The position numbers and the translations under genes were made by a program. From the IMG/VR virus record IMGVR_UViG_3300028025_001180: DNA of 64,000 nucleotides, one strand, 5' to 3'. Shown piece after piece: positions 3,659 to 20,556 of this stretch. The notes below the pieces were generated by a model. It was not told where the DNA came from, ran no database searches, and saw nothing but the letters and a program-made list of their open reading frames with translations. Origin of the DNA: a virus (Duplodnaviria; Heunggongvirae; Uroviricota; Caudoviricetes). The stretch's first letter is position 1. Each line of letters opens with the position of its first letter.

Positions 3659-3659
3659 A

Positions 3660-6600
3660 TTATTTTAATTTAGCTTCTAATTCTTCAATACGTTTTTCCA
3701 AACTAGCAACCTTTGCCACTAACACTTGTGCGTAAGACAAAGATAAGAAACCATCTTCACTTTCTATCACTGCACTTGGTAATATTTCTTGTAAGTCCTG
3801 TGCGTAGTATCCTAATTCCTCTTTACCATCTTTTATGTATAGCTTAGGCTTTATAGCCTCTATTCCACTAATTATAGGCTTATCACTTATTTCTTTCTTT
3901 AAACGCTTATCTGAAAATTCAAAGAATGATGTAGCTGTGACTGAAGAACTAAATGTAGCAGCACCTGTTGTTGCAATTTTTAATCCTGTTGGGTCGCTTC
4001 CACCTGCAGGTCTTAACCATATACCATTTCCTGATGTAGATTCTAATAATGAAAATGATGAAACTACTTCCCCAACAAACATAGAATTACCTGCTAAAAT
4101 TCTTGAAGTAAACCTTCCTGTACCATTAACATCTAACTTGTATCCACTATCTGTTGTAGTACCTATTAATACGTTACCACCATTTTGATTTAATGCTAAT
4201 GGTTTATAACCTATTAATTGCTCTACTGCTTGTATTGTTCCATATCCCAATGAGTGATAACCAAATATTAATTGAGCATTTGTATTACTTGCTCTTTGTA
4301 TAACAAGTTGCTCATTACCTGCATCTGCTGAAATTGTTAATCTATTTCTAAATATACCTGTACCATTAACATCTAATTTATATCCTGCGTCAGTTGTAGT
4401 TCCTATTAATACATTACCACCGCTTGTGATTCTCATTCGTTCGCTTCCTGCATTCTCAAATATTGTTGCAGCAGATTCAGAGTTATTGATATAAAGATTT
4501 GTACTATCATCTATACCAATAAACGTACCATCGCTTGTACCTTCTCCTGTGTTTGAATTAACTAAGTGTAATTGCGCTCTGTTTGCAGTACCTGCACCAT
4601 AGATTTGTAAAACTCTATTATTTGATGCTTGACCTGTTGCATTTGCAGTTCCTATTCCTAAATTGCCACCACTTGTTATCCTAGCCCATTCTGTATATGT
4701 TAAACCATTTGTACCTAATCTTCCAAATGTTAAAAATCCACCTCCTGCTCCATGTGCAAATAAATCTGTACTATTACCTGCTGCTAAGTCTTGACCTAGT
4801 CCAGCAAATACATTTGTTCCATTATCATACACTAAAAATTTAGCTCCAATTCCTGTTCCAAGTGAAAGTTTTGAATATCCTAAAGGGTTAGTAATTCCAA
4901 TACCAATTCCTGTACCACTTTCATACATTATGCTATTCCCAATAGAACTTGCACTACTCCATTTAGGAATATAGTTGGTAGTACCACTACCTGTTACACC
5001 ACTTCCACCACCTCCTCCAATAGTTACACCATTAATTTGGAATACACCATTAATGTTTACGTTACCATTAACTTGTAAAGCTCCTCCACCTGTAATACCT
5101 GCAGTATTAATTAATACTTGGCTAGCTTGATTAATAGTCATTACAGTAGTTAAAATACTACTTTGTAATGTCTTAAAATATAAAACTCCACCAGTTCCTG
5201 CAAATTTACTTCCTTGTATTTGTGCTTTTGTTTGACCAATATCAGCCTTAAAGTTTAAAAAAGTATCACCTGCACTATTATCACCAGAGATGCTTAATGT
5301 AGCATTTGTTGTAGGTCCACCTACTATTACTTCACCACCGCTTGTGATTCTCATTCGTTCGGTACCATTTGTAATAACACCTAAATCGTGATTAGTAAAA
5401 GTACCAATCAATCCTAAAGACGAATAAGTAATACCAGTTCTTATTGTTCCATTACCAGCTGCAACTGCACCGCCTATTACATCAAGTTTCTCACTTGGAC
5501 TACTCGTTCCGATTCCAACATTACCACCATTAGTTAATACCATTTTAGCAGCACCTCCACCTGTTTGCCAATTATGACTTAAAGCATCATAGTTAAGATT
5601 AGTATAAGCTGAACCTGTATAAGCCTGTATGTCTACTGCAGATGCTTGAGTTAATCTTAATGTGCTTCCTACAAATACGCTACTAGATAACGTAGCAGCA
5701 CCTGTAACTCCTAATGTACCACCAAATGTTCCATTTCCACTTGCAGCAAAATCACCATTGCTACCACCTGTAGCTGATATATTAACTCCTGGTGTACAAA
5801 CGTGAGTTAATGTAGAACCTGTTTGAGCTGACCCTCCAAATGTAACTGTTTCATTGTTTAAAGGATACACCTCAACATTCATTGTACAGACATTAGGAGA
5901 ATTGCTAGTTGCTTCAACTGAAAAGTTTTCATCATTATTACTTATAACTCTTAAAGTTAATAATGTGTAAATACCTGCTTGAGAGGTGATTAAAATATCT
6001 TGGGAATGATTTACTAAGATGTCAGCTGTTACGTTGATAACTACACTTCCAGTGGTGCCTTGCAATGTCATTCTAACAGCAGATGCTAAAGCATTACCTG
6101 TTACATTACAAACCACTGTATATCCTGCATTACTTACATTAGCTGTAGAAACATATCTCTTAACAGCTCTTTCAAGTGAGCTTGAATTAAAGTAATAATC
6201 TGTAGCACTTACAGTGCTTGAGAATGTAGCAGATCTATCAGTAGCAATAGATAACGCAGTTGTAAATGTATTAGAAGTGGCTATATCAGCCCCACCTGAA
6301 ACTCTTATAGTAAAAGGGACTGATGCAAATCCTAAAAAAGGATTCTGTCCTCCTATTTTTACAAACCCTAATCTTGGAACTGCTTGTGCATCTGTTCCAA
6401 TATAAGTGGATTCTCCATTTACACTAATGGTACCAGTAGGTGAAAAGATTATATTATTAGTCCAAGCTCCTCCATTTAAATGCCAAAAAGCTAAATCATA
6501 AGTAGCATCTTGTTGTAAAATCCAACCTCTATTATTTGTACTATCTAATATTGTAAATCTTGAACTACCTCCTACTGTATTTGAACTACCTGCTCCATTT

Positions 6601-8168
6601 GCTATTATTTCAGCAGTAGCTCCTGTAGTTCTAATGTTACCAGTAAATGTAGCAGTTGTACCATTTAAAGCTCCTGTCAACGTACCACCTGCTAAAGGTA
6701 AGTAAGTAGAAGATGCACTACTTGTAGTTAAATATGTATTTGAATCTATACTTCCATCTGCTTTTAAAAACTGAGTTGATGTACCACCGCTTTTTATTAA
6801 ACTATTTGCTGTTACAGAAGATGAGAATGTAGCTGTACCAGTTACTTGGAACCTTGCACCATTACTTGTTTGAGTTCCTATTATTACGTAACCATCAGAT
6901 GTGATACGCATACGTTCAACAACACTTGTAGCAGATGCACCATATCCTGTTCCAAATGAAACACCTGCATCGTTACTGCCATTAAATTGAAGATAACCTA
7001 GCCATGTAGAATCTACCTTTTGTTGTATTCTGAAACCTGCACTTGTCCAAGAAGTACCATTAACAACACGAGTGTTTGTTAATTCTAACAAATCAACACT
7101 ACCTGTATTAACTTGCAATTTTTGAACTAATGATTGGTTTCCTAATGTTGTCCCAAGGGTAGGCCCTACAATATTTAATTTGGATGATGCGTCAGCATTT
7201 CCTCCAATACCTATATTCTTATTTGCATCCCAAGCATAAGGAAACTCTATTTCACTACCAAGACCCTGATCTCCCCATCTTGATGTTAGTAAACGAATAG
7301 ATGATATTCTTACTGATGAAGCATTAGTAGTAGTTATAGTTAGTCTAACAAAGTTGTCCCCACCAAAGGTAGTGATATAAAACCAAGCAGGGATGGCATT
7401 ATAAGTATTTGATGACGTATGTCTAACTGTCCAAGTAACATTGTCCGCAGAAGATTCAAATACAATTGTCTTTGCTGGTGATACCACTGTATATGTAAAT
7501 CCAATACATAACCAACTTGCACTGTTAAAAGAAACTCCTGTCCAAATCCATCTTGCAGAAAGTATAGTTGTACCATTAATAATCTCAATATTTTGGTTTT
7601 GTTTTTGTGCAAATAAATTATTATTTAATGTTGCAGAATTATAAGTAATACCATCAGCTGATGTTTGATATTGAGGTGAGTATAATCCAAATGAAAATAC
7701 ATCATGCCATAGATATGGAGAAATAGGAGATTGTGCAACCTGTGATGTATCAGATGGTATCACTGTATTTGTTAATGATCCATTTTGTTTAAAGCTCTGT
7801 AGGCCAAATGCAAAAATACCTCCAGTAGATGATACGTTTACTAAATTAGTTCCATCAAATGTTAAGTTAGCTTCAGCGTTTGCTGTATTAGTAGTTCCTA
7901 ATGATGTAAGAATTCTATTATCAACAGGATTTGTAATTGTACTAAATCCAGTACCAGACGTACCAGAAGAACCATTGGCACCTGATGTGCCAGATGTTCC
8001 TGTAGTACCACTAGTTCCCTTTGTACCACTTGTACCACTAGATCCTGCTATACCATTGGCTCCTGAGGTTCCACTTGATCCTGCTATACCAGACGTTCCA
8101 GAAGTAGAATAACTGATTGGTACACCACTATCAGTCAAAAGATTATTAGTAATTAAAGCTATGCCCAT
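3660..8168 (-). CDS. Tail fibre, 1502 aa, with an N-terminal collagen-like G-[TS]-[SA] tract, internal 'ERMRITSGGNV-IGTT' fibre repeats, and a C-terminal peptidase-S74 intramolecular chaperone (self-cleaving) domain.
   Basis: The N-terminus is GTSGIAGSSGTSGANG... The repeats ERMRITSDGYVIIGT, ERMRITSGGEVIVGG, ERMRITSGGNVLIGTTTDAGYKLDVNGTG and NGGNVLIGTTTDSGYKLDVNGTG are present. The last 84 aa, SDKRLKKEISDKPI...GYYAQDLQEILPSAV...LSLSYAQVLVAKVASLEKRIEELEAKLK, match the endosialidase/T5-Ltf chaperone consensus SD-R-K-NI...AQEVQEV-PEAV. Confidence 0.88.
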   Translation of the reverse strand: MGIALITNNLLTDSGVPISYSTSGTSGIAGSSGTSGANGIAGSSGTSGTKGTSGTTGTSGTSGANGSSGTSGTGFSTITNPVDNRILTSLGTTNTANAEANLTFDGTNLVNVSSTGGIFAFGLQSFKQNGSLTNTVIPSDTSQVAQSPISPYLWHDVFSFGLYSPQYQTSADGITYNSATLNNNLFAQKQNQNIEIINGTTILSARWIWTGVSFNSASWLCIGFTYTVVSPAKTIVFESSADNVTWTVRHTSSNTYNAIPAWFYITTFGGDNFVRLTITTTNASSVRISSIRLLTSRWGDQGLGSEIEFPYAWDANKNIGIGGNADASSKLNIVGPTLGTTLGNQSLVQKLQVNTGSVDLLELTNTRVVNGTSWTSAGFRIQQKVDSTWLGYLQFNGSNDAGVSFGTGYGASATSVVERMRITSDGYVIIGTQTSNGARFQVTGTATFSSSVTANSLIKSGGTSTQFLKADGSIDSNTYLTTSSASSTYLPLAGGTLTGALNGTTATFTGNIRTTGATAEIIANGAGSSNTVGGSSRFTILDSTNNRGWILQQDATYDLAFWHLNGGAWTNNIIFSPTGTISVNGESTYIGTDAQAVPRLGFVKIGGQNPFLGFASVPFTIRVSGGADIATSNTFTTALSIATDRSATFSSTVSATDYYFNSSSLERAVKRYVSTANVSNAGYTVVCNVTGNALASAVRMTLQGTTGSVVINVTADILVNHSQDILITSQAGIYTLLTLRVISNNDENFSVEATSNSPNVCTMNVEVYPLNNETVTFGGSAQTGSTLTHVCTPGVNISATGGSNGDFAASGNGTFGGTLGVTGAATLSSSVFVGSTLRLTQASAVDIQAYTGSAYTNLNYDALSHNWQTGGGAAKMVLTNGGNVGIGTSSPSEKLDVIGGAVAAGNGTIRTGITYSSLGLIGTFTNHDLGVITNGTERMRITSGGEVIVGGPTTNATLSISGDNSAGDTFLNFKADIGQTKAQIQGSKFAGTGGVLYFKTLQSSILTTVMTINQASQVLINTAGITGGGALQVNGNVNINGVFQINGVTIGGGGGSGVTGSGTTNYIPKWSSASSIGNSIMYESGTGIGIGITNPLGYSKLSLGTGIGAKFLVYDNGTNVFAGLGQDLAAGNSTDLFAHGAGGGFLTFGRLGTNGLTYTEWARITSGGNLGIGTANATGQASNNRVLQIYGAGTANRAQLHLVNSNTGEGTSDGTFIGIDDSTNLYINNSESAATIFENAGSERMRITSGGNVLIGTTTDAGYKLDVNGTGIFRNRLTISADAGNEQLVIQRASNTNAQLIFGYHSLGYGTIQAVEQLIGYKPLALNQNGGNVLIGTTTDSGYKLDVNGTGRFTSRILAGNSMFVGEVVSSFSLLESTSGNGIWLRPAGGSDPTGLKIATTGAATFSSSVTATSFFEFSDKRLKKEISDKPIISGIEAIKPKLYIKDGKEELGYYAQDLQEILPSAVIESEDGFLSLSYAQVLVAKVASLEKRIEELEAKLK
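3663..3914 (-). other. Peptidase-S74-like intramolecular chaperone domain of the 1502-aa fibre. The predicted autocleavage serine is in FSDKRLK.
   Basis: Motif match as described for the parent CDS. Confidence 0.8.
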
Positions 8169-8191: not shown

Positions 8192-11100
8192 TTATATAAA
8201 TGTAAATTCTCTCCATGATGTACTTGTTTTAACCCATAATCCTTCAACTCCATCAGTTTGATATACTATTAATCCTGTTGCTGGTGACGATATTGCCAAT
8301 CTTTGAGCAGCTGTCATCACAGGAGGTAAGAAACCTTGAGTGGTAGAAGAAACTTGTAAAGCAGCAGTTGCAACTGAAGTGGTTGTTCCTATGTTAGTTG
8401 TACCTGCAACACAAAGACCATTAGTAGGAGCTACAGTTGATGTTGAATAACCTATTGCAACGTTTCCATTTACTTGTAAACGACTGCCTATTAAGTTGTA
8501 AGCTAATGCAATACCAACATTACCTGATGAAGATATTACTAATTTATCTGCATTTGTGCTTGTAAAAAATGATAAATAGTCATTTGTATTATCATAAATT
8601 ATTCTACCTTTAAAATCTGTTCCACTAACTGAAAAATCTATTACACTACCACCTGTTGCACTACCATTCATTTGTAAATATGCATAGTTTGCATCACTAT
8701 GCATATGTAATCCCAATCCTATTGTTGAACTTGAACCTCCTGTTACATATAGCTGAGAAGGGAAACTTGTACTACCAATAGAAGTGTATCCATTTATATA
8801 ACTATTAGAACCCAAAGTTATCAATGCCCCTGTATCTGTAATATTACTATTACCTATTGTAGTTGCACTTGTAAACTTAGCCACTGTGTTTGTAGTACCA
8901 GAAACTGCCACTGATGTTCCAGACGATCCACTAGTTCCAGATGTTCCAGATGAACCAGAGGTTCCGCTTGTTCCTGATGTACCACTAGTACCTTTAGTAC
9001 CACTGGTTCCACTCGAACCAGATGTAGCAGAAGTTCCACTAGATCCACTTGTAGCAGACGTACCTGATGATCCATTAGTACCAGATGTACCACTAGAGCC
9101 AGAAGTTCCACTAGTTCCTGTTGTACCACTTGACCCTGATGTAGCAGACGTGCCAGAACTTCCAGATGTTCCACTTGTACCAGACGACCCACTAGTACCA
9201 CTAGTTGCAGAAGAACCTGAAGATCCACTGGTTCCTGAACTTGCTGAGGTGCCAGAGCTGCCATTTGTTCCTGCAATCCCTGAGCTACCTGAAGTTCCAG
9301 CTGTACCATTACCTCCAGAAGCACCATCAAGATTTACTGTCCATGATGTAAATGTACCAGATCCCACTGTTCTAGTTGGGGCTCCAAATTGAAGAGCTCC
9401 TGTAGATGGGTTGTATGATACCACCTCACACTCTTGAAAGTTTGTAATGCTATTAACTATTATTATAGATTGAGCCACTGAATATGCCAACCCTGTTCCT
9501 ACAGTGATTGTCCCAGCATTGCCTAAAGTGAAGGATGTAGTAGATGTTGTTTGATATCTATCTCCAGATAATCCTGCAGTTCCAGATGTTCCAGACGTAC
9601 CAGTAGAACCACTTGTACCAGATGTTGCTGAAGTTCCAGACGTACCCTTAGTACCACTTGTACCACTTGATCCAGAGCTTGCTGATGTACCAGACGAACC
9701 ACTAGTCCCTGAAGTACCTGAACTACCAGACGAACCACTAGTTGCAGATGTGCCTGAGCTACCACTAGTACCAGATGTTCCAGATGAGCCACTACTACCA
9801 GAAGAAGCTGAAGTACCTGATGAGCCTGATGTAGCACTAGTGCCAGATGAACCTGAGGTTCCACTTGTTCCGCTAGTTCCCTTTGTACCACTAGTTCCAC
9901 TTGAACCACTCGTACCTGCTGTGGCATTTATACCTGAAGTACCAGCAGTAGCATTTAAACCAGATGTTCCAGAGGTACCTTGTAAACCAGAAGTACCTGA
10001 AGTAGCTGAAGTTCCAGATGTACCAGAAGAGCCAGAAGTACCAGAAGTTCCAGACGTACCTCCTCCTACAATAAGAGAAGCCTCAAAATAACTTCCTGTA
10101 CCTGAAGTATTAATATTTTGTGAAGTTGTATTTCCTGTAAAAGCAGTAACTTCTAAATAATCTGTACTTCCATTTAAGTAAATAATTTCATTTATTTGTT
10201 GAGCATACCCAGCACCACTTAATATTTGAGTTTGATTTATGCCAATTTGAGTAGAACCATTTTTTCTAAATTGTATATTAGTTTGATTGTTTGTAACAGC
10301 ACCAGCATCCCACCAAATTTGAGCATTAACATTGTAATATCCAGCAATAGTTGGCTGAAATTTATTTGGTGTGAACCAACTATTAGGATCAACATCATCA
10401 ACAAATGCTACAACTTGGTCAGATCCATTTGTTATAGTTTGTGGTGCATTTTTTATAGCTCTAAAAAGATAATTAGATGCTACTAATCCTGTAGGAGAAA
10501 TACCACTAGACCCACTAGTTCCAGCTGTACCACTGCTTCCAGAAGTACCAGACGTACCAGTAGATCCTGATGTACCTGATGTTGCTGATGTACCACTAGA
10601 TCCAGATGTGCCACTAGATCCAGATGTACCACTGGTTCCACTTGTAGCAGAAGACCCTGAAGTTCCACTAGTGCCTGATGTACCCTTAGTTCCAGATGTT
10701 CCACTTGAACCTGAAGTTGCAGATGTTCCGCTACTACCACTTGATCCACTAGTACCACTTGTTCCAGAAGAACCACTAGTTGCACTCGTACCACTTGATC
10801 CAGATGTTCCACTAGATCCAGAAGTACCACTAGTTGCTGAAGTTCCAGAAGAACCATTTGTTCCACTAGTACCAGATGAACCATTAGTTCCACTTGTGCC
10901 ACTAGTTCCTTTTGTTCCACTAGTTCCACTAGACCCAGCAGTGCCACTTGAACCAGAGGTTCCAGTAGAACCACTTGTTCCACTTGTTCCACTTGATCCA
11001 TTGGTACCACTTGTTCCACTAGAACCTGATGTGCCAGATGAACCAGAGCTTCCACTTGATGCAGAAGTTCCTGAAGATCCTGATGTGCCAGAAGTTGCAG

Positions 11101-14100
11101 ATGAACCACTTGATCCAGATGTACCTGCTGTGCCACTTGAACCACTTGTTGCACTGGTTCCACTTGATCCACTTGTACCACTAGACCCATTGGTTCCAGA
11201 AGAACCAGATGTACCACTAGTTCCAGAACTACCACTTGTTGCAGATGTTCCAGACGTACCAGATGTACCCTTTGTTCCACTAGTTCCACTTGATCCAGAT
11301 GAACCACTTGAAGCTGATGTACCAGAAGATCCAGATGTTCCAGATGTTCCAGAAGTTCCATTCGCTCCAGATGTACCAGAGGTACCAGAAGGAGGAGTAA
11401 ATGTAGTTTGTGCGTATGAATAATTACTTACACCCTCTGTGTAGAAAGTTATTGTATTAGCAGAGCCACCATTATGTTGTGCATAGATTTGACAATATAG
11501 TCTGTCTGTTGCGTTCAATGCAGTTTGACCTAAGAAAAGATCAGTGAAAAACTCTTTGATGACACCAGTGGTCATACCCTCTGTGTCTAAGTTTGTAGTA
11601 CCTAGAAGAGTAGATGCTCCTCCTGTTGTATATTTATATAGCTCTATATCAACTGCTACATTTACATTTGCGTTGATAGAAAAGTGAGTGACCCAAGCCC
11701 AGTTTCCTGAAGGTAGATTTGTAGCATTTGGTATACCTGAATCTGTAGCATAAGTTGCTATTAGTGTACGAACATTTTGTGTAACACTTAGTACCACAGT
11801 TTGTTCAGCAGTACCTGTACCAATAGGTGACCACTCTTTATATGTAGGTGTGCCAAAAGCACTATTTGTATTTACAGATTGATTTAAGTAGTATATAAGA
11901 CCTCCAGCCACACCACTTACACCAGAACTTCCTGCTGTACCAGATGTACCTGAACTGCCTGATGTTCCACTGCTTGCAGACGTACCAGATGTACCTGCTG
12001 TTCCACTTGATCCATTAGTACCACTAGTTCCAGTAGTTCCAGATGTTGCAGAAGTTCCGCTCGATCCATTGGTTCCACTAGTTCCACTAGTTCCAGATGT
12101 ACCTTTTGTACCACTAGTTCCAGAGCTTCCACTAGACGCAGAAGTACCAGAAGAACCAGAAGTAGCACTTGTACCAGAACTTCCATTAGTACCTGCTGTT
12201 CCACTCGAACCAGATGTTCCACTTGTTCCACTAGAACCACTTGAACCAGAAGTTCCTGAACTACCAGATGTTCCAGAGGTTCCACTAGATCCTGACGAGC
12301 CACTTGACGCAGATGTACCTGAAGTAGCAGAACTACCAGAAGTCCCTGAGGACCCATTAGTTCCACTTGAGCCATTGGTTCCAGATGAACCTGAAGAGCC
12401 TGAAGAACCACTGGTTGCAGATGTACCAGATGTTGCACTTGTACCAGAAGAACCAGAAGATCCACTTGTGCCTGAAGAAGCAGAAGTACCAGAAGACCCA
12501 CTAGTTGCAGAGGTTCCACTAGAACCTGCTGTTGCACTTGTACCTGATGAACCAGATGTTGCAGATGTGCCAGATGAGCCACTTGTTCCTGAGCTACCAG
12601 AAGTTCCACTTGTAGCAGATGTACCTGCAGTGGCAGATGTACCAGAACTACCAGCAGTGCCAGACGAACCACTCGTACCACTAGAACCATTGGTACCAGA
12701 TGTACCATTTGATCCAGCTGTACCACTAGTTGCACTAGTTCCATTACTTCCATTTGTGCCACTTGTTCCAGAAGAACCACTGGTGCCACTTGACCCAGAA
12801 GTACCTGCTGTAGCACTAGTTCCTGCTGTACCACTAGATCCAGATGTAGCAGATGTACCAGACGTAGCAGATGAACCAGAAGTTCCTGCTGTTCCAGAAC
12901 TACCATTAGTGCCACTAGTTCCACTAGTGCTACTAGTTCCAGAAGTAGCAGAGGTTCCATTAGACCCACTAGTACCAGAAGTACCAGACGACCCACTTGT
13001 TGCAGAAGTACCACTAGACCCATTTGTTCCAGATGTGCCTGACGATCCACTTGTCGCACTGGTTCCACTAGAACCAGAGGTACCAGATGTTCCTGTTGTG
13101 CCAGAACTACCACTAGTAGCACTTGTTCCACTTGAGCCAGATGTACCAGAAGTACCAGAAGACCCTGAGCTTCCACTTGTACCAGAGCTACCTGATGTAC
13201 CACTAGAACCATTGGTGCCAGCTGTACCAGCACTTCCTGACGTACCTGAGCTACCATCTCCACCTGATGCACCATCTAGATTGACAGTCCAAGTGGAATA
13301 TGTGCCAGAGCCTACAGTTCTGCTAGGAGCACCAAACTGAAGGGCTCCTGTATTAGTATTATAAGAAATTACCTCACATTCTTGGAAATTTACACTATCA
13401 TACACTATGATAATAGACTGTGCCAATGTATAGGCTAGTCCTGTACCAACTGTGATTGTTCCAGCGTTTCCTAATGTAAAAGATGTATTTGATGTTGTTG
13501 CGTATCTATCACCACTTAAACCAGCAGTTCCAGAAGATCCAGAAGAACCAGATGTTCCTGAAGAAGCTGACGTACCTGAAGAAGCAGATGTACCACTGGT
13601 AGCACTAGTCCCACTAGAACCAGATGATGCAGATGTTCCACTCGATCCACTAGTAGCTGAAGTTCCACTAGAACCAGACGTTCCAGAAGTTGCAGATGTA
13701 CCACTGCTGCCACTTGTTCCAGCAGTACCACTACTACCACTTGTACCAGAAGTTGCACTCGTTCCAGAACTTCCAGAAGTAGCTGAAGTTCCACTTGATC
13801 CACTAGTTGCACTTGTGCCACTAGAACCACTTGTTCCAGCAGTTCCACTAGAACCAGAAGTTCCACTTGAAGCTGATGTTCCACTAGTAGCTGATGTGCC
13901 ACTTGAACCACTAGTTGCTGATGTACCACTAGATCCGCTAGTACCACTTGATGCTGATGTACCAGATGTACCTGTTGTACCAGACGTACCTGTAGTTCCA
14001 CTAGACCCACTTGTTCCTGAAGAAGCACTAGTGCCACTAGTTCCACTAGAACCATCTGTTCCAGACGTACCTGATGTTCCTGTTGTTCCAGATGAGCCTG

Positions 14101-15403
14101 ACGTTCCTGCAGTACCAGACGTACCATTTCCACCACTAGCTCCATCTAAGTTAACTGTCCATGAGCTATATGTGCCTCCACCAACAGTTCTTGTTGGTGC
14201 AGCAAACACTAACACACCTGTATTAGTATCATAACTTATAATTTCACATTCTTGGAAATTATTTAAGTCATATACTACAATGATAGATTGTGCTACACTA
14301 TATGCTAATCCTGGAGCCACTGTTAGTGTCCCAGCATTACCTAATGTAAATGTATCTGTAGATGTTGTTCTATATCTATCTCCAGAGATACCTGCAGTAC
14401 CTGAGGAGCCTGATGTTCCTGCTGTTCCATAATAGCTACCTAAACTACCATCACCTCTTATATATTGAGCAGTTGTACCATTTGCTGTGACGTTGATATT
14501 TCCACTTGATGTAACTGGTGCTCCCACTGTAAAAGCAGAAGGCATAGTTAGCCCAACACTAGTTACAGTGCCTACTGACCAACCTCTGTTAGCAGATAAA
14601 TTATATGTAACACCATTAATTGTAAGTGTTCTAGTGCTAGGAACAGGTACATATCCTAACACAGATTCAATATCAAGATTTGTAATAGGAGCAGCTGATG
14701 TAACTAATCCTTTTCCATTTACACCAAACTTTAAGAAAGTATTACTTCCATAAATATTACTATTAACTGGTGCCAAAGTAAGAGTTACAGGAGATCCTGT
14801 CGTACCAATTCCAGTTACATCTCCTACAAAAGATAAAGATGCAGAAGGAACAGCTATAGTTACAGGAGTTACATTTGTAACACGTCCTTTACTATCTACA
14901 GTTACTCTAGGAACTTGTGTAGAAGAACCATATGTACCAGGAGCAGTATTAACTGTTGCTAATGTTAGCACAGCAGATCCAGGACCTGTTGCTGTACCAT
15001 CTCCTGTTAAAGCAGAAATATAATTTCCAGCAGGTTGGTATGGTGTATTATCTAAGCTACCATCTCCCTTAACAAAGTCTGAAGAGGTTCCACCAATTGT
15101 AATATGTTTACCAGCATATAAATCTCCTGTATATGTTAAATCAAAACCTGCAGCTGTAATAATTGTGTCACGTACCATAGTGCCACCAAGTCCCACAGGC
15201 AAGCCTGGTCCAGATTGAAAAACACCATTATTAAATAGATATCCTATTGCAGCTTCCTGAAACTTAGCATCTATTTTTTGTAGAGCAGTTTGTAAACTAT
15301 CATTAGTATTGATGCCAGTGTATACTAAATTAGCACCTTCGTAAAATACGCAAGTAGAATTCAGTATGACTGGACATGGTTCAGTGGAGCAAATTGGATC
15401 CAT
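8192..15403 (-). CDS. Giant tail fibre, 2403 aa. Long imperfect collagen-like (G/A-T/S-S)n tracts alternate with three copies of a ~90-aa globular repeat. Its N-terminal Cys module is shared with two other fibre genes.
   Basis: The N-terminus reads MDPICSTEPCPV...CVFYEGANLVYTGINTNDSLQTALQKIDAKF. There are hundreds of GTSGSSGTSATSG triplets. The triplicated module reads LSGDRY-TTS-TSFTLGNAGTITVGTGLAY-AQSIIIV...NFQECEV-SYN--TGALQFGAP-RTVGSGT--WTVNLDGASGG. The C-terminus reads GFLPPVMTAAQRLAISSPATGLIVYQTDGVEGLWVKTSTSW. Confidence 0.85.
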   Translation of the reverse strand: MDPICSTEPCPVILNSTCVFYEGANLVYTGINTNDSLQTALQKIDAKFQEAAIGYLFNNGVFQSGPGLPVGLGGTMVRDTIITAAGFDLTYTGDLYAGKHITIGGTSSDFVKGDGSLDNTPYQPAGNYISALTGDGTATGPGSAVLTLATVNTAPGTYGSSTQVPRVTVDSKGRVTNVTPVTIAVPSASLSFVGDVTGIGTTGSPVTLTLAPVNSNIYGSNTFLKFGVNGKGLVTSAAPITNLDIESVLGYVPVPSTRTLTINGVTYNLSANRGWSVGTVTSVGLTMPSAFTVGAPVTSSGNINVTANGTTAQYIRGDGSLGSYYGTAGTSGSSGTAGISGDRYRTTSTDTFTLGNAGTLTVAPGLAYSVAQSIIVVYDLNNFQECEIISYDTNTGVLVFAAPTRTVGGGTYSSWTVNLDGASGGNGTSGTAGTSGSSGTTGTSGTSGTDGSSGTSGTSASSGTSGSSGTTGTSGTTGTSGTSASSGTSGSSGTSATSGSSGTSATSGTSASSGTSGSSGTAGTSGSSGTSATSGSSGTSATSGSSGTSATSGTSGSSGTAGTSGSSGTSATSGTSGSSGTSATSGSSGTSASSGSSGTSATSGTSASSGTSASSGTSGSSGSSGTAGLSGDRYATTSNTSFTLGNAGTITVGTGLAYTLAQSIIIVYDSVNFQECEVISYNTNTGALQFGAPSRTVGSGTYSTWTVNLDGASGGDGSSGTSGSAGTAGTNGSSGTSGSSGTSGSSGSSGTSGTSGSSGTSATSGSSGTTGTSGTSGSSGTSATSGSSGTSGTNGSSGTSATSGSSGTSGTSGSNGTSATSGTSSTSGTSGTNGSSGTAGTSGSSATSGTSATSGSSGTAGTSATAGTSGSSGTSGSSGTSGTNGSNGTSATSGTAGSNGTSGTNGSSGTSGSSGTAGSSGTSATAGTSATSGTSGSSGTSGSSGTSATSGSSGTSATAGSSGTSATSGSSGTSASSGTSGSSGSSGTSATSGTSATSGSSGSSGSSGTNGSSGTNGSSGTSGSSATSGTSASSGSSGSSGTSGTSGSSGTSGSSGSSGTSGTSGSSGTAGTNGSSGTSATSGSSGTSASSGSSGTSGTKGTSGTSGTSGTNGSSGTSATSGTTGTSGTNGSSGTAGTSGTSASSGTSGSSGTSGTAGSSGVSGVAGGLIYYLNQSVNTNSAFGTPTYKEWSPIGTGTAEQTVVLSVTQNVRTLIATYATDSGIPNATNLPSGNWAWVTHFSINANVNVAVDIELYKYTTGGASTLLGTTNLDTEGMTTGVIKEFFTDLFLGQTALNATDRLYCQIYAQHNGGSANTITFYTEGVSNYSYAQTTFTPPSGTSGTSGANGTSGTSGTSGSSGTSASSGSSGSSGTSGTKGTSGTSGTSATSGSSGTSGTSGSSGTNGSSGTSGSSGTSATSGSSGTAGTSGSSGSSATSGTSGSSGTSASSGSSGSSGTSGSSGTSGTNGSSGTSGTSGSTGTSGSSGTAGSSGTSGTKGTSGTSGTNGSSGTSGTNGSSGTSATSGTSGSSGTSGSSGTSATSGSSGTSGTSGSSGSSGTSATSGSSGTSGTKGTSGTSGTSGSSATSGTSGTSGSSGTSGSSGTSATSGTSGSTGTSGTSGSSGTAGTSGSSGISPTGLVASNYLFRAIKNAPQTITNGSDQVVAFVDDVDPNSWFTPNKFQPTIAGYYNVNAQIWWDAGAVTNNQTNIQFRKNGSTQIGINQTQILSGAGYAQQINEIIYLNGSTDYLEVTAFTGNTTSQNINTSGTGSYFEASLIVGGGTSGTSGTSGSSGTSGTSATSGTSGLQGTSGTSGLNATAGTSGINATAGTSGSSGTSGTKGTSGTSGTSGSSGTSATSGSSGTSASSGSSGSSGTSGTSGSSGTSATSGSSGSSGTSGTSGSSGTSASSGSSGTSGTKGTSGTSATSGTSGSTGTSGTSGTAGLSGDRYQTTSTTSFTLGNAGTITVGTGLAYSVAQSIIIVNSITNFQECEVVSYNPSTGALQFGAPTRTVGSGTFTSWTVNLDGASGGNGTAGTSGSSGIAGTNGSSGTSASSGTSGSSGSSATSGTSGSSGTSGTSGSSGTSATSGSSGTTGTSGTSGSSGTSGTNGSSGTSATSGSSGTSATSGSSGTSGTKGTSGTSGTSGTSGSSGTSGTSGSSGTSVAVSGTTNTVAKFTSATTIGNSNITDTGALITLGSNSYINGYTSIGSTSFPSQLYVTGGSSSTIGLGLHMHSDANYAYLQMNGSATGGSVIDFSVSGTDFKGRIIYDNTNDYLSFFTSTNADKLVISSSGNVGIALAYNLIGSRLQVNGNVAIGYSTSTVAPTNGLCVAGTTNIGTTTSVATAALQVSSTTQGFLPPVMTAAQRLAISSPATGLIVYQTDGVEGLWVKTSTSWREFTFI
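9313..9590 (-). repeat. Copy 3 of the intragenic ~270-bp direct repeat.
   Basis: The reverse complement translates to GLSGDRYQTTSTTSFTLGNAGTITVGTGLAYSVAQSIIIVNSITNFQECEVVSYNPSTGALQFGAPTRTVGSGTFTSWTVNLDGASGG. Confidence 0.7.
13262..13530 (-). repeat. Copy 2 of the intragenic ~270-bp direct repeat.
   Basis: Same module sequence: LSGDRYRTTSTDTFTLGNAGTLTV...NFQECEIISYDTNTGVLVFAAPTRTVGGGTYSSWTVNLDGASGG. Confidence 0.7.
14129..14400 (-). repeat. Copy 1 of a ~270-bp direct repeat that encodes the conserved globular module inside the 2403-aa fibre.
   Basis: About 70% protein-level identity to the copies at 13262..13530 and 9313..9590. The nucleotide similarity is visible by eye. Confidence 0.7.
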
Positions 15404-15555: not shown

Positions 15556-18500
15556 TTATTTACCAAATGGTTTAGCCTCAGATTGTGCTTTCATACCAAG
15601 ATCTTTAGCTATATCTGGATAGAACATTAACAGAACAGCATCTACTTGTGAAGCTATAGGGAATCCTTTTAATAAGTATTTAACCACTTGAGTTTTCTCT
15701 GCCTTCTCTTCATCTCCTACACCAAGAGCATACATCTCTGTACCAAAGTTTACAAATAGCTTCTTAAAGTTTTCTAAGTAACTTATTGCTGGGAAGATAC
15801 CTGAGGTGGTTAGGCCTAAGAAGGATGTTGGATTGTAGAAATAAGCAACCTCATCTCTAATCTTATCCATCACTCTAAGCATATACTTATATCTGTTCTT
15901 TGTAGCTCTATCATCATCATCTCCTGGTTCCACTGCTTTGGCACCTATGATTAATGTGGACAATGCAAGATAGAACATGAAGTCTGTCATTTGGTTACGT
16001 ATGTTATTACTTACCAATTCTACAAACTCCCCTTCTGTCATTCTTAGTTCTTTACCTGTATCTTTCTCATAGTCAGATCTTTTTGATTCATAAAGTCTTT
16101 TTATTTGATCGACAAACTTTTGGTCATCTCCTTTTATAGAACTGATTAAGCTATCAACAGAACCCATAAAGTCTTGTGTTAGAAGTCTGAACATGTTTCT
16201 AGTTCTACCCCACTCATAAGCTTCTGTAGCTGAGTTGTATTTTAAGTTACCAAACCTTACGTCTACAAGTCTTGGTATCCAGTTCTTGAACACCATGAAT
16301 GACTTACCATATATATTTAAGTTAATCTTTCTAAGGTCATCCTCAGATAGGTTACCTAACGCATCTTTAGTAATAGCCTGTACCTTTCTTCTAAGCTCAA
16401 TCACACTATCAGACTTTCTGTCTAAGCCTTCCACTACAAGTTCATTACCTTCTACCTTAGCTAGTTTCAAAAAGCCTTTCTCATCAATTAGTCTCTTTAC
16501 CTCTGACTCAAACTTCTCTTTTAATTGACTTCTTTCTTCAGCTGTGCCTGTAAACATATTAGCAAACTCTGGTTGTTTCTTAAGATATTCTCTTACGTTA
16601 AATACCTTACCATCTTCTACAATAGAGTTTTCTAAGTAGCTAAAGAAGTTAATAGACTGCACATATTGATCTCCAGTTCTCATCAAGATCATTAAGAAGT
16701 CTTGTATTCCTTCTTGGCTAAACTTACTAACAGACAACTCTTTAGCAAGGATGTTGTTATAGTTTTCTGTCAAAGGTTGGAAGTATTGTAATGCTCCTAT
16801 GTATTTCTTAGAATCTACACCATTCATTTTACCTGCTAGCATAAACTCATTACGTACAAAGTCTGCCTTTGTAAAGAATTTACCAGCATTGATATAACTC
16901 TGGAAGCTACCACCTAAGAAGTTTGATAGGGCTGATATAGGATTCAATCCTAGCGTCTTCATTTGGAAGACATTATTTAACTGTGTGATTGTCTTGTTTA
17001 AAGATATCTGAGCATCATCATAGTCTTCTGTAAATACCTTTCTACCTAATACTTTGTTTGCTCTCTTACCAAAGTTTGCTATACCTCCTAATAACTGATC
17101 AAAGTTTTCACTTTCTACATACTTCTGACCATACACAATAGCTGCCATCATATCTCTTATAAGCTTAGTGTTGTCAGAGTTGTCTGATGTAGTCTCAACT
17201 GTACCATCAGGTCTGTACTTAGTTTTACCAAAGTAGGAGGTTTTGATGGCTTCTTTGTTTGACTCAACCTTAATAATCACATTTAACTGGTGCTCAATGT
17301 TACTTAAATACTCATAACGAATGGCCATGTTATTTAACAGAGTCATATTTCTGAACAAGTCTTCACTTGCTTCTTCTACAGTTTCTCTAGTAAAGTATTT
17401 AGGAATAGAATACACTGGCTCTTTAGTAATAGGATCTATCTCACCATAACCTACGTCTCCTTCTGTGATAGTTATGTTTCTTAACAAAGACTCACCAAGC
17501 TTATACTCACCCCCCATTACAATCTTTTCTGTAAGACTCTTTCTTACAAATGGTAAAAACACTCTAGCATCTCTACTATTAATATATTTGATTCCTACTA
17601 GATATTCATTTCTATCTTTAATATAATCAAAGAACTCTTTAGCAGGTTTGTTCTCTGGTTTGTTAAGTTCTTTCCATGCTTCAGACTCCCATCTCTCCGC
17701 CTTGGGAAACTTACTAACAAACTCATACAATAACCAACCAGGAGAATCAGTTGTTGATGTATTGTATAAAGCATTAACATCAGCAACCTCTCTCTTCTTC
17801 TCTTTGTTTATACTTTCTTCATCACCAAATCTAGGTTTATCTTCTATTCTCTTAAATTCTTTTTCCTTTTGTTCTTTTAAGAATTCATTATACTTTGATA
17901 CATCAATGTTATCTCTAACCCATTGTGTATCTTTCTCAGCAATCTTACTCTTCAAAGTTTCGTAGAACTCAGAACTAAACTCATTTATTAATTCATTCTT
18001 GTTCTTCTTCTTGATGATATCAAAGTAGTTTTTGTTTGTAAGTCCTTTAGACTTAGCCCACTTATCATACTTCTCTTTAATAGCTAAAAGTTTGTTTCCT
18101 TGTTCTGACGTTTCAATAGACGCAAGACCAAAGGCTCTGTTAGCCATCTTATATAAAATCTCAGCAGACTTAAGCTGTATTACAGATGTAGAGTTAAATA
18201 ACTTACTAAATCCTTTAATAACCTTCTCAGGTTTTAATAAGTCCATAACGTTTACATCTTTTGCAATAACATTCTCAGCAAAGTCTTTTCTTACTTCTTC
18301 AAGATCTGCTTCTAACTCATTTGCACTTTCTGCAGTGTCTCTAATGTCTTGCCACAATGCTTGATCTTTCTCAGACAAGTCTTTCTTGAACAAAGACTTT
18401 AAGTCTGTTGCCAAAGATGTATAAACCATCAGAGAGGTTTCATAAGATAGGATTCTATCAGATAGGTCATTCTTTTGTTTATCTGTAAATGCTCCTGGAT

Positions 18501-20556
18501 CTTTACCTTTCCACTCATTATTATATGTATCTATAACTCTTTGAACGTCAGCATTTAATAACTTAGCCTGTCTAATAAGGGGCTCAACATTCTCTCTCAT
18601 TTGTAATTGTCTAATAGACTCATACAATGAGTTTAATAATTCAGCTTTACTTCTTTTCTCTTCAGGACTAGCTTTCTTAGAAGATATAGTGTCATATATC
18701 TTATTAAGCTTTTCAATCAACGTATCTAGTTTCTTATTACTAGTCTTTTCAGTTTCTAAACCTACAGGTAGTAAGTATGCTAGTTCTTCTTTGTTTAAGT
18801 TTACATCTCCTATCTGAACACCTGTCAACTGTGGTAGCACTCCTTCTTTAGGAATAGCTCCAGAATAAATTGCTCTGATAGGAATCATTCTTGTCTGTTC
18901 AAAGTCTTCTGGCTTAACACCATACCCCTTTTCTATAATAGACTTGTATTGTTTCATTTGTTGTCTCCAAGCACTCACCTTATACCAAGGAACATCTTTA
19001 TATCTTTGAACATTAAGGTCCATAAACTTCCAGTCTAAGATGCTCACCTTTCCTTCAGGAGTAACAGCAATAAAGTCTATAGTACCAGCTACATCACGTG
19101 ATGCATTATATACAGTCATCTCAGCAAGAAACTTTGTATTAGCAGGGAATGTTTCCAAACGAGCTGCCATGTTTCTTTTAAGAATATTATACATATCCTT
19201 GTTCTTAGGATTCAACTGAGATACATATCCATTATCATCAGGTCTTTCATTCTCAGGTCTTAATGTACCATCTTCATTTAAGAAGTAGTTCTTAAGCATG
19301 TGCTCAATATCAGCATGTCCTGCTGTACCTTTTTCTTTCTTAAGATCATCTACAGCTTGGTCATACTCAGACTTAGTCAAGTCTTTGTTAGCAAATCTTG
19401 TGCTATACCAATCCTTAACAAAGTCAGTAACTCTTCTCTTGATTCTATTACCATTGATTAAATAACCAGTGTCATCTTTTGTAATCTGATCACTAGTAAA
19501 TCTTAACTTATCAATTATAGCCTGTTGAGAATTAATGTTTTGTTGGAAATACACACCCTCAGTGTTTCTAATATCATCAACATTTCCAATTTCTTCACCA
19601 CCCAACACCATCATAGCTGCTTGGTCAAAGCCAGACTTAACAAATAATCCTTTAATAAATTCAACTATTTGGTTCCACCAACCTTCCACACTAGCCAATA
19701 GTTCTGGCTTCTCTGTAGAACCTTCATTCTTTTTAATGATAGTCTCAGCTAATATTTTACCAATAGCTTCCACCTTTAACTTTCTGATGTTAGGTTTGCC
19801 ATCAGCAGTTTGATATTGTTTATACTTACCATATGTAGCTAGGACATCAGAGTACATTTTGTAGCTGTTGATTTCTCCTAGTAACTTATTAAATAACTGA
19901 GGATTCTTTTGCTCTAGTATTTCTACAACAAAGTGCATAGCTTCTTCTGTAAGAGCTACATCTTCTTTACCTTGAGTTACCTTTACAAGCTTTTGCATGA
20001 TATCAGCAACACCATTCACGTCTTGCTTAACACCATCTACCTCTATGGCTTGTAGTGTTTTAATATCTACACCTATTCTATTTAAAAGATCTTTAACAAG
20101 ACTTACAGTTTGAGGAGCTGCTTTAGAAGCAGGTATCTCTTCTGTTTGTAATAAAATGCTATCTCCATCAGAGTTGACACCAAACGTAGTGTCATTCTCA
20201 AGATCTAATCTATTAGCCTCAGGTATCTCAAGATCTAATTCAGCCAAAGCTTGGTCAAGCTCAGCTGCATCTTTTGCATTCAAAGCATCCAACTGCTTCA
20301 CTGTAGGAGCAATAATAACTCCCACCTTATCTGAATATGCTTTGGGATAGAATACTTTCCCTAGGGCAATTTCAGAATTGATTGCTTTGTTAAGAGTGTC
20401 TGCCACAGAACGTGATACTCCATAGTAGTTCTCAGGATTAACTTTCTCTCTAGGAGATGTCCTAACTTCTATAAAGTCCTTACCATCAAAGTTCAAGTAA
20501 GGCTTGTTCTGTACATATTTCTCAACTGCAGTTTTTATACCTGTTTGACAACTCAT
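15556..20556 (-). CDS. Large virion (presumptive ejected/cargo) protein, 1666 aa. Its start is coupled to the stop of the 3660-aa gene by a TAATG overlap.
   Basis: A long uninterrupted ORF with coding-like composition. The ATG at 20556 overlaps the TAA of the upstream gene. No catalytic motif recognised. Confidence 0.7.
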   Translation of the reverse strand: MSCQTGIKTAVEKYVQNKPYLNFDGKDFIEVRTSPREKVNPENYYGVSRSVADTLNKAINSEIALGKVFYPKAYSDKVGVIIAPTVKQLDALNAKDAAELDQALAELDLEIPEANRLDLENDTTFGVNSDGDSILLQTEEIPASKAAPQTVSLVKDLLNRIGVDIKTLQAIEVDGVKQDVNGVADIMQKLVKVTQGKEDVALTEEAMHFVVEILEQKNPQLFNKLLGEINSYKMYSDVLATYGKYKQYQTADGKPNIRKLKVEAIGKILAETIIKKNEGSTEKPELLASVEGWWNQIVEFIKGLFVKSGFDQAAMMVLGGEEIGNVDDIRNTEGVYFQQNINSQQAIIDKLRFTSDQITKDDTGYLINGNRIKRRVTDFVKDWYSTRFANKDLTKSEYDQAVDDLKKEKGTAGHADIEHMLKNYFLNEDGTLRPENERPDDNGYVSQLNPKNKDMYNILKRNMAARLETFPANTKFLAEMTVYNASRDVAGTIDFIAVTPEGKVSILDWKFMDLNVQRYKDVPWYKVSAWRQQMKQYKSIIEKGYGVKPEDFEQTRMIPIRAIYSGAIPKEGVLPQLTGVQIGDVNLNKEELAYLLPVGLETEKTSNKKLDTLIEKLNKIYDTISSKKASPEEKRSKAELLNSLYESIRQLQMRENVEPLIRQAKLLNADVQRVIDTYNNEWKGKDPGAFTDKQKNDLSDRILSYETSLMVYTSLATDLKSLFKKDLSEKDQALWQDIRDTAESANELEADLEEVRKDFAENVIAKDVNVMDLLKPEKVIKGFSKLFNSTSVIQLKSAEILYKMANRAFGLASIETSEQGNKLLAIKEKYDKWAKSKGLTNKNYFDIIKKKNKNELINEFSSEFYETLKSKIAEKDTQWVRDNIDVSKYNEFLKEQKEKEFKRIEDKPRFGDEESINKEKKREVADVNALYNTSTTDSPGWLLYEFVSKFPKAERWESEAWKELNKPENKPAKEFFDYIKDRNEYLVGIKYINSRDARVFLPFVRKSLTEKIVMGGEYKLGESLLRNITITEGDVGYGEIDPITKEPVYSIPKYFTRETVEEASEDLFRNMTLLNNMAIRYEYLSNIEHQLNVIIKVESNKEAIKTSYFGKTKYRPDGTVETTSDNSDNTKLIRDMMAAIVYGQKYVESENFDQLLGGIANFGKRANKVLGRKVFTEDYDDAQISLNKTITQLNNVFQMKTLGLNPISALSNFLGGSFQSYINAGKFFTKADFVRNEFMLAGKMNGVDSKKYIGALQYFQPLTENYNNILAKELSVSKFSQEGIQDFLMILMRTGDQYVQSINFFSYLENSIVEDGKVFNVREYLKKQPEFANMFTGTAEERSQLKEKFESEVKRLIDEKGFLKLAKVEGNELVVEGLDRKSDSVIELRRKVQAITKDALGNLSEDDLRKINLNIYGKSFMVFKNWIPRLVDVRFGNLKYNSATEAYEWGRTRNMFRLLTQDFMGSVDSLISSIKGDDQKFVDQIKRLYESKRSDYEKDTGKELRMTEGEFVELVSNNIRNQMTDFMFYLALSTLIIGAKAVEPGDDDDRATKNRYKYMLRVMDKIRDEVAYFYNPTSFLGLTTSGIFPAISYLENFKKLFVNFGTEMYALGVGDEEKAEKTQVVKYLLKGFPIASQVDAVLLMFYPDIAKDLGMKAQSEAKPFGK

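Follow-up and report, generated by a model that had tools for sequence, protein, structure and literature searches.

Proline-free collagen-like tracts, globular nodes and a linked TibC-like glycosyltransferase gene in a mosaic family of uncultured phage fibres

What does a phage gene specify when more than half of it encodes a three-residue repeat, and does such repetitiveness make the gene prone to rapid variation? This question is raised by IMG/VR virus record IMGVR_UViG_3300028025_001180, a 64,000-nucleotide (nt) stretch of Caudoviricetes DNA that is referred to in full as the window. Positions 8192-15403 of its minus strand carry an intact open reading frame (ORF) of 2,403 amino acids (aa), as seen in both the ORF list and the translation. 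The original prediction described this ORF as a hyper-repetitive collagen-like fibre gene with a built-in hotspot for recombination and size variation. The analysis presented here confirms the fibre gene, with its match to Pfam Collagen, and leads to a different view of how it varies. The overall model that we consider moderately probable is a very long, segmented and probably homotrimeric virion fibre with exchangeable domains and a linked glycosyltransferase. The source is most likely an uncultured crAss-like phage.

The Pfam Collagen model (PF01391) matches 22 stretches of the fibre, with E=2e-117 and 383 bits against a cutoff of 27.2. The (G/A)-(T/S)-S triplets, 431 in number, are organized in six tracts that together comprise 1,293 aa or 3.9 kb, corresponding to 54% of the gene (Table 1). 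The tracts anticipated by the original prediction are thus real, at 3.9 kb rather than the roughly 5 kb that had been proposed. Each tract spans the entire distance from one domain to the next, and not a single register shift occurs across the 431 triplets. The Gly position is occupied by 371 Gly, 59 Ala and 1 Ser. The X position holds Thr or Ser, and the Y position Ser, followed in declining order by Ala, Asn, Thr and Lys. Proline is absent from the tracts and charged residues are few (Lys = 7). Non-Gly residues never occupy neighbouring Gly positions (0 against 8.2±2.5 expected, with 0 of 5,000 shuffles reaching 0), and all triplets bordering globular domains carry Gly. Serine had been thought to be encoded by AGY; it is written mostly with TCN codons (TCT 40%, TCA 21%), and AGY makes up only about 36%. 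The long spurious ORFs that had been noted on both strands are all nested inside the triplet tracts.

The same composition characterizes the wider family. Across 21,644 triplets from 106 family fibres, Ser and Thr together account for 86% of X and 83% of Y positions, and Pro for 0.35%. Furthermore, every insertion or deletion (indel) within the collagen-like tracts of relatives is a multiple of 3 aa.

The tracts are interrupted by five globular domains, three of which are copies of one 88-aa module. All three lie within a few bases of their predicted places, and their edges are conserved, with G-[IL]-SGDRY at one end and DGASGG at the other. As had been anticipated, the copies are alike in protein (74−83% identity); their DNA identity is 67−73%, and a repeat finder independently groups them as a three-copy family of 72−75% identity. 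The AlphaFold2 model of copy 2 is a small all-beta barrel with a predicted local distance difference test (pLDDT) score of 81.5. Its best structural matches are tail and tailspike proteins, and in BFVD it resembles proteins of uncultured phages annotated as 'collagen triple helix repeat' or tail-fibre proteins, with TM-scores up to 0.93.

No model in Pfam, PHROGs or NCBIfam covers the module. A word-indexed homologue search yielded only 5 fragments, and an exhaustive profile search was needed to recover the family. Of the 1.84 billion cluster representatives searched, 1,952 passed a threshold of E≤1e-3 and 857 one of E≤1e-10; a single protein held as many as 11 stretches that match the module profile. 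In IMG/VR, 413 stretches match the module. Modules in collagen-rich proteins were counted with hmmsearch --max, as the default bias filters undercount. A scan of 185,579 species genomes returned one locus, in an uncultured metagenome-assembled genome; due to the narrow peptide patterns used, this is weak evidence for a phage-restricted module. Within GenBank, the only phage records with the module are LR756501 and LR756503, which represent a 735-kb uncultured phage and carry it at 107757-108029.

The two remaining internal domains, inserts A and B, differ from the module. Insert A is the distinct insert that had been expected at about aa 1150-1400 and was located at about aa 1170-1340, while the second non-collagen insert (insert B) had been overlooked. 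A profile of insert A gave no match among PDB sequences, and a fold search was needed to relate its predicted structure to beta jelly rolls of the galactose-binding or carbohydrate-binding-module type. Insert A recurs in many orthologues as a node of about 170 aa. Insert B has 80 homologues, and 7 of the 28 aligned ones match Pfam C1q (PF00386; best E=2.5e-7). Its profile retrieves C1q-family structures from the PDB as the top five and as 5 of the 7 best matches (E=0.007−0.02), among them C1q-related factor, the NC1 domain of collagen X and C1q. On the strength of the Pfam matches of its homologues and the PDB matches of its profile, we call insert B a divergent C1q domain, which would be unusually placed between two collagen-like tracts. 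Two points weigh against these assignments: a pLDDT of 70.8 gives the predicted structure of insert A moderate confidence, and the insert B assignment is transitive, with the window copy alone falling below the Pfam C1q threshold and the profile reaching E of about 0.01 in the PDB.

The two ends of the fibre are likewise distinctive. Conservation across several fibres of related contigs marks the first ~54 aa, with their three Cys, as a putative virion-docking peptide. These residues are followed by repeats of a tail-fibre type (GxYGS..VTVDxKGRVT), recognized by eye. In phage crAss001, fibres dock via short N-terminal peptides (PMC10172136), and the conserved Cys-containing N-terminus fits docking of this type. 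The N-terminal domain thus most likely attaches the fibre to the particle. At the opposite end, the distinct C-terminal tip described by the original prediction is present. A motif within its last ~70 aa, TTQGFLPPxMTxAQ...SPxxGLxVYxT...W, is common to many Bacteroidota and phage proteins, and homologues of this motif are annotated PF26696 in precomputed Pfam. The last ~45 fibre residues (8195-8400, minus strand) are nearly identical to the C-terminus of an otherwise unrelated metagenomic protein (P0244), and the motif also occurs behind the signal peptide of a Bacteroidota (Aquipluma) protein ending in BclA_C (P0244 and P0319 set). The shared motif points, if only weakly, to a host among the Bacteroidota and to sequence exchange with surface proteins of cells. 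Searched directly, the non-collagen domains of the fibre gave no credible match in Pfam, PHROGs or NCBIfam. Weak matches to Rad51, TraI_C and TBP-TOTE were set aside as noise, and BLASTP matches of the C-terminal domain obtained with the composition correction off were discarded as low-complexity noise.

A fibre in which Ser and Thr fill nearly all X and Y positions offers many sites for O-linked sugars, and the window encodes a candidate enzyme. The product of ORF 265-1326 matches the protein O-glycosyltransferase TibC (PDB 4rap) with a phmmer E=8.8e-39, over aa 20-341 against TibC 37-375. Its match to Pfam Glyco_transf_9 is marginal, at 20.3 bits against a cutoff of 22; the copy in L117 (contig Ga0315905_10009637), the one diverged relative that an exact-match scan of a metagenome collection yielded, reaches 25.7 bits. 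TibC defines the bacterial autotransporter heptosyltransferases (BAHT), which hyperglycosylate TibA and AIDA-I by modifying serines of these repetitive adhesins (PMC4358343). With residue roles taken from that work, the catalytic Asp110 (D93 in the window enzyme) and the iron-finger cysteines Cys339, Cys342, Cys358 and Cys370 (C305, C308, C324 and C336) are all kept, as are the sugar-binding residues Thr226, Lys230 and Trp305 (T205, K209 and W270). Immediately upstream, and overlapping its start, lies the 3' end of a group-1 glycosyltransferase gene, the full L117 counterpart of which (42-755) matches Pfam Glyco_trans_1_4 with E=6e-8. The glycosyltransferase pair is 93% identical at the nucleotide level to L117 484-1793, though the fibre genes beyond it differ completely.

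The linkage of this enzyme to fibre genes recurs across the family. A TibC-like gene was found in 44 of 117 fetched fibre loci. Among the 34 de-replicated loci with at least 5 kb of sequence downstream of the last module-bearing fibre gene, 29 carry it 0.5−4 kb downstream, and it is convergent with the fibre in 38 of 41 cases. The linked enzymes are 37−93% identical to the window copy. Only 4 of 50,697 GenBank phage records contain a TibC-like gene, and two of these are the sole records with the module, LR756501 and LR756503, where the gene (580168-581181) lies about 470 kb from it. Among the few orthologues that share the N-terminal anchor of the window fibre and have at least 4 kb of downstream sequence, the gene is present at 3 of 4 collagen-bearing and 0 of 3 collagen-free loci. 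Within the window, there is no autotransporter near the TibC-like gene, and the neighbouring repetitive Ser-rich proteins are the fibres. From homology and linkage, we infer that this enzyme probably attaches O-linked sugars to the Ser/Thr-saturated fibre. A literature search of limited reach found no published link between BAHT enzymes and phage fibres, and the pairing appears to be conserved and previously unremarked.

Several points weigh against this assignment. Where TibC has the sugar-binding Arg286, the window enzyme has V251, which may reflect the use of another donor sugar or an alignment error at this site. Two other genes, over a distance of 6.9 kb, separate the glycosyltransferase from the fibre, and 5 of the 34 related loci have no TibC-like gene within the available sequence. 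Since the loci were found via the fibre, part of the linkage could be inherited synteny. Furthermore, the hypervariable tail-fibre regions of aquatic phages commonly encode glycosyltransferases, and those near fibre genes are usually read as modifying host lipopolysaccharide or phage DNA (PMC7029224, PMC10202952). The enzyme might accordingly modify host envelope glycans or another target and reside near the fibres as part of a host-interaction island, an explanation to which the loss of Arg286 would also be congenial. In Microcystis phage Mel-JY01, a TibC-like domain is part of a multidomain fusion that bears a methyltransferase annotation, in a gene context that is uninformative. We consider a target other than the fibre somewhat unlikely: the characterized members of the family glycosylate proteins, on serines of repetitive adhesins (PMC4358343), the linkage to Ser/Thr-saturated fibres holds while enzyme identity falls to 37%, and the gene follows the presence of collagen among the anchor-sharing loci, albeit in small numbers.

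A second question is whether the tracts form collagen-type triple helices at all. They lack the stabilizing X/Y composition of known collagens, provided by proline and hydroxyproline or, as in the streptococcal Scl proteins, by charged pairs. Under the rules of animal and streptococcal collagens, a helix that lacks proline and has Ala in 14% of its Gly positions would be weak. The Pfam Collagen match is driven largely by composition and periodicity, which also weighs against a triple helix. The tracts could instead be extended glycosylated mucin-like or other non-collagen spacers that tether the domains, either as disordered 'bottle-brush' linkers or as another glycine-rich polyproline-II assembly. 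The absence of Pro, the scarcity of charged residues, the Ser/Thr saturation and the linked protein O-glycosyltransferase would all be compatible with such spacers. A disordered linker, however, has no reason to keep perfect register over 431 triplets, to restrict its indels to multiples of 3 aa, or to forbid adjacent non-Gly residues. The unbroken register, the absence of adjacent non-Gly residues and the 3-aa indels together fit a true three-residue period better than a featureless linker. In addition, the tracts enclose a C1q-like domain, and the C1q domains of both C1q and collagen X are found next to a collagen helix. We therefore regard spacers without a triple helix as improbable, and collagen-type triple-helical rods as the most likely form of the tracts. 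Fully extended, rods of this kind would add up to about 370 nm (1,293 residues at ~0.29 nm).

Where on the particle such a fibre would sit is a separate matter. A length of ~370 nm is extreme for a tail fibre, and the fibre has no match to a tail PHROG. In phage crAss001, short N-terminal peptides anchor the fibres of the tail as well as those of the head, the trimeric head fibres binding to pockets of the capsid hexons via residues 1-38 (PMC10172136); docking of this type weighs against an exclusive assignment to the tail. A capsid-decorating head fibre nevertheless appears doubtful to us. The gene adjoins a second fibre gene whose product has a Peptidase_S74 chaperone domain and tail-fibre PHROG matches, the repeats seen by eye in the N-terminal domain are of a tail-fibre type, and the best structural matches of the module are tail and tailspike proteins.

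We next turn to the DNA. Collagen-like repeats have been proposed earlier as recombination hotspots in phages (PMC7242381), and the original prediction attributed slipped-strand and homologous recombination to the repeats of this gene. When codons were permuted among positions of the same amino acid (synonymous shuffles), the expected longest exact direct repeat was 26.6±2.6 nt; the 7.2-kb gene contains none longer than 23 nt. Repeated 18-mers are depleted (61 against 103±20; z=-2.07, with 2% of shuffles as low). Arrays detected by Tandem Repeats Finder are only 63−85% matched, and the DNA of the collagen-like tracts is 60−66% identical to itself. The description 'hyper-repetitive' thus holds for the protein and not for the DNA. 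At third codon positions, identity between the module copies is as low as 43−53%, near saturation. Concerted evolution of the modules was considered and rejected, each copy resembling modules from other phages at least as closely as it resembles the other two copies. An assembly artefact was likewise rejected: with no exact repeat above 23 nt, the gene poses little difficulty for assembly.

The same shuffle test detects a 299-nt exact repeat in a relative (L001, 585-7922; z=+28), which demonstrates that it has power. Another relative, L038 (5252-15967), contains a 96-nt exact intragenic repeat, and enrichment is also strong in L010, L061, L077 and L018, the enriched relatives ranging from z=+10 to +28. 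Two others, L035 (z=-3.5) and L084 (z=-3.3), are depleted of repeats, as is the window gene. Some family members are therefore recombination-prone, while the codons of the window gene are at least as mixed as expected by chance, and perhaps slightly more so. The family is thus split into recently duplicating genes and codon-scrambled genes. Module shuffling between the fibre and two neighbouring fibre genes sharing its tracts had also been proposed. Only one neighbour, the second fibre (3660-8168), has a tract, of 17 triplets, and the longest exact DNA match that it shares with the fibre gene is 20 nt; the other neighbour, 15556-20556, has none.

A contingency-type hotspot, at which slippage or recombination would often create length variants and swap modules with neighbours, is consistent with the long exact repeats in L001 and L038 (z=+14 to +28), with in-frame tract indels of 3−87 aa between moderately diverged pairs and with a virophage collagen-like gene that lost 81 nt in a mutant emerging on a new host (PMC7242381), but is very improbable for a gene so poor in repeats whose single tract-bearing neighbour shares so little DNA with it, the more so as the 3,572-aa fibre of a relative, present in contigs from five samples, is free of indels at an identity of at least 99.9%. 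More generally, repetitiveness of a protein can coexist with scrambled DNA, which calls for caution when a 'simple-sequence hotspot' is read from a translation.

Over longer evolutionary time, the variation in fibre length and modules, and the shuffling of domains, that the original prediction envisaged are supported. The 17 fibres that share the N-terminal domain (51−84% identity) vary in length between 608 and more than 3,658 aa and carry 0−3 modules and 0−1,518 aa of collagen-like sequence. The best relatives of the window fibre differ from domain to domain: L089 or L004 for the N-terminus, L085 or L025 for insert A, L019 for insert B and L030 for the C-terminus. Of 10 related pairs, 8 fall from at least 90% to 10−30% identity at or just past a collagen-like tract, and in 3 of these 8 the low-identity stretch has such tracts on both sides. 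One anchor-sharing relative, L084 (10001-18781), has a single unbroken collagen-like tract of ~1,500 aa (~500 triplets) and no module.

The sharpest comparison is with L117, where the orthologue is 656 aa long and 3.6 kb stand in place of 12.1 kb of the window. The first 960 nt of the two genes are 87−100% identical (about 93%); from exactly the first collagen-like tract, identity falls to 58−73%, and the sequences then become unalignable. On the other side, the products of the genes upstream of the fibre (15556-20556 in the window) are only 30% identical, and the step from there to the ~93% of the fibre N-terminus places an abrupt mosaic junction at the start codon of the fibre gene. L117 also shares with the window fibre a 47-aa 'neck' of 68% identity (aa 2168-2214 of the window fibre, where its C-terminal domain begins) with the motif SGTTNT.xKFTxxxTIGNSNITDxGxLITL. 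There, it lies within a separate second fibre of 980 aa (2376-5318, minus strand; aa 128-174), and the window gene may thus unite what L117 distributes over two genes. Taken together, these comparisons support a family that evolves through rare exchange of cassettes, joined at tract edges, and through occasional in-frame indels.

These elements can be combined into a working model. The Cys-containing N-terminus would dock a homotrimeric fibre to the particle. From there, six proline-free tracts would extend as triple-helical rods, separated by nodes comprising three small beta-barrels, one carbohydrate-binding-like jelly roll and one C1q-like domain, with the tip at the C-terminus. The nodes would set chain register and trimerization and add ligand-binding sites along the shaft. 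The TibC-like enzyme would glycosylate the Ser and Thr residues that fill nearly every X and Y position, and the O-linked sugars would stabilize the proline-free helix, coat the fibre, or both. Diversity would arise by rare cassette exchange at tract boundaries and by indels in multiples of a triplet, as opposed to rapid slippage.

Beyond the window, we put forward only tentatively, as a possibility that falls short of being probable, that a widespread and undescribed system exists in which a TibC-type enzyme and a partner glycosyltransferase densely glycosylate proline-free (G-T-S)n fibres with beta-barrel nodes. The sugars would replace proline and hydroxyproline as helix stabilizers and yield a glycan-coated filament, hundreds of nanometres long, that would serve in adhesion to the environment or protection from it. 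If true, collagen-like sequences would gain a new class, and BAHT enzymes a new role beyond the virulence factors of the autotransporter type.

The fibre gene lies at the distal end of a phage structural block in which every gene is on the minus strand and which holds, besides the terminase, portal and major head protein genes (Table 1), further large virion proteins; the G+C content of the window is about 35%. Downstream of the fibre, the second fibre is followed by a 560-aa ORF (1976-3658, minus strand). This ORF shows S-x-D-G-G-x-T-F repeats by eye that resemble BNR/Asp-box (sialidase-type) repeats, and has no Pfam or PHROG match. The 1,666-aa ORF adjoining the fibre upstream (15556-20556, minus strand) has sub-threshold matches to a PHROG exonuclease (E=3e-6) and to Pfam PD-(D/E)XK (E=0.05). 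Next to it, a 3,660-aa ORF (20556-31538, minus strand) gave no Pfam or PHROG match and could, by position, be the giant cargo or virion-RNA-polymerase-type protein of crAss-like phages. Within the block, an SbcD/Mre11-type DNA-repair exonuclease-like gene is present at 46077-47327 (minus strand; PHROG 704, E=4e-45), and the ORFs 39247-43956 and 43883-44857 (minus strand) overlap by 74 nt, which could reflect an alternative start or a programmed frameshift. Searches of the 50,697 GenBank phages by megablast with the fibre gene and by tblastn with its N-terminal domain gave no match, and an exact-match scan of IMG/VR for the start of the fibre gene returned no identical contig.

Table 1. Coordinates of the fibre segments and of other genes in the window.
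Feature	Position	Strand	Residues (aa)	Remarks
N-terminal domain	14429-15403	minus	1-325	
Collagen-like tract 1	14375-14428	minus	326-343	6 triplets
Module copy 1, 77-aa core	14144-14374	minus	344-420	with edges 88 aa, 14129-14392
Collagen-like tract 2	13505-14143	minus	421-633	71 triplets
Module copy 2, core	13274-13504	minus	634-710	with edges 88 aa, 13259-13522
Collagen-like tract 3	11897-13273	minus	711-1169	153 triplets
Insert A	11387-11896	minus	1170-1339	galactose-binding / carbohydrate-binding-module-type beta jelly roll (predicted)
Collagen-like tract 4	10496-11386	minus	1340-1636	99 triplets
Insert B	10061-10495	minus	1637-1781	divergent C1q/TNF-like domain (putative)
Collagen-like tract 5	9557-10060	minus	1782-1949	56 triplets
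Module copy 3, core	9326-9556	minus	1950-2026	with edges 88 aa, 9311-9574
Collagen-like tract 6	8912-9325	minus	2027-2164	46 triplets
C-terminal tip	8192-8911	minus	2165-2403	
Second fibre	3660-8168	minus	1,502 in total	17-triplet G-T/S-S tract at aa 22-72; C-terminal Peptidase_S74 (endosialidase chaperone)
TibC-like (BAHT-family) protein O-glycosyltransferase	265-1326	plus		convergent with fibre genes
Group-1 (GT4-type) glycosyltransferase, 3' end only	3-272	plus		runs off window start; overlaps start of TibC-like gene
Major head protein	53662-55215	minus		
Portal	57178-59760	minus		~25% identity with crAss-like portals
Large terminase	59760-61802	minus		

Among known systems, the closest in overall design are the collagen-like side-tail-fibre proteins EPclA-D of E. 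coli O157 prophages, which form rods with knobs and have been proposed to serve in host attachment (PMC3368898). As in these proteins, a phage fibre here combines a Gly-X-Y stalk, presumably triple-helical, with flanking globular domains that would act in trimerization. Unlike the one conventional collagen domain of EPclA-D, the window fibre has six tracts with 431 triplets that are free of Pro, hold almost exclusively Thr and Ser at X and Y and have 14% Ala at the Gly position; its beta-barrel, jelly-roll and C1q-like nodes are unrelated to the PfN, PCoil and PfC domains. A parallel for its evolution is found in the antireceptors of S. thermophilus phages, in which, according to PMC5601072 (citing Duplessis & Moineau 2001), variable host-range domains are separated by collagen-like repeats that have been proposed as sites of exchange. 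The homology breakpoints at tract edges in the family described here are similar, while lineage and scale differ. The repeat DNA of the window gene is too degenerate for ordinary homologous recombination, which would make exchange a rare, evolutionary event and no high-frequency switch.

The joining of a probable C1q-type jelly roll to a presumed collagen-like helix would be shared with C1q, collagen X and BclA. Bacillus BclA is a precedent for O-linked sugars on such a stalk: its collagen-like region is Thr-rich and O-glycosylated and ends in a trimeric C1q/TNF-like head. The two termini of a C1q domain usually sit on one face. Whereas the C1q domain is C-terminal in these three proteins, the C1q-like domain of the window fibre, by itself below the Pfam threshold, is internal with tracts on both sides, and the linked transferase is of the TibC type, unlike the glycosylation machinery of BclA. 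In a study of mycobacteriophages, phage-encoded glycosyltransferases reportedly modify the structural proteins of the phage itself, at the C-termini of capsid or tail-tube proteins. Enzymes, substrates and phage groups all differ from those considered here. Such phage-encoded glycosyltransferases acting on mycobacteriophage virions are mentioned in PMC11256854 and PMC12894461.

With the BAHT enzymes TibC and AAH (PMC4358343), the window enzyme shares near-full-length homology, the catalytic Asp, three of four sugar-binding residues and four Cys. Its gene lies near that of a highly repetitive Ser-rich surface protein, as tibC lies beside tibA. TibC itself is a dodecameric ring that heptosylates serines of the adjacent autotransporter. 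Its putative counterpart here is encoded by a phage, its presumed substrate is a collagen-like fibre and not a beta-helical autotransporter, and the change of Arg286 to Val suggests that the donor may not be ADP-heptose.

Phage fibres of a collagen-like kind have been described before, as has the swapping of domains at collagen repeats, and in its original form the finding is thus an ordinary one. What sets this fibre apart is the proline-free G-T-S repeat, a node domain without a Pfam model and the conserved partnership with a protein O-glycosyltransferase. The first two define a large family of uncultured phages, represented by the 413 IMG/VR stretches and 1,952 cluster representatives. The third provides a testable route to glycosylated phage fibres and a possible answer to how a proline-free triple helix could be stabilized, with relevance for host recognition by phages as well as for the engineering of recombinant collagens.

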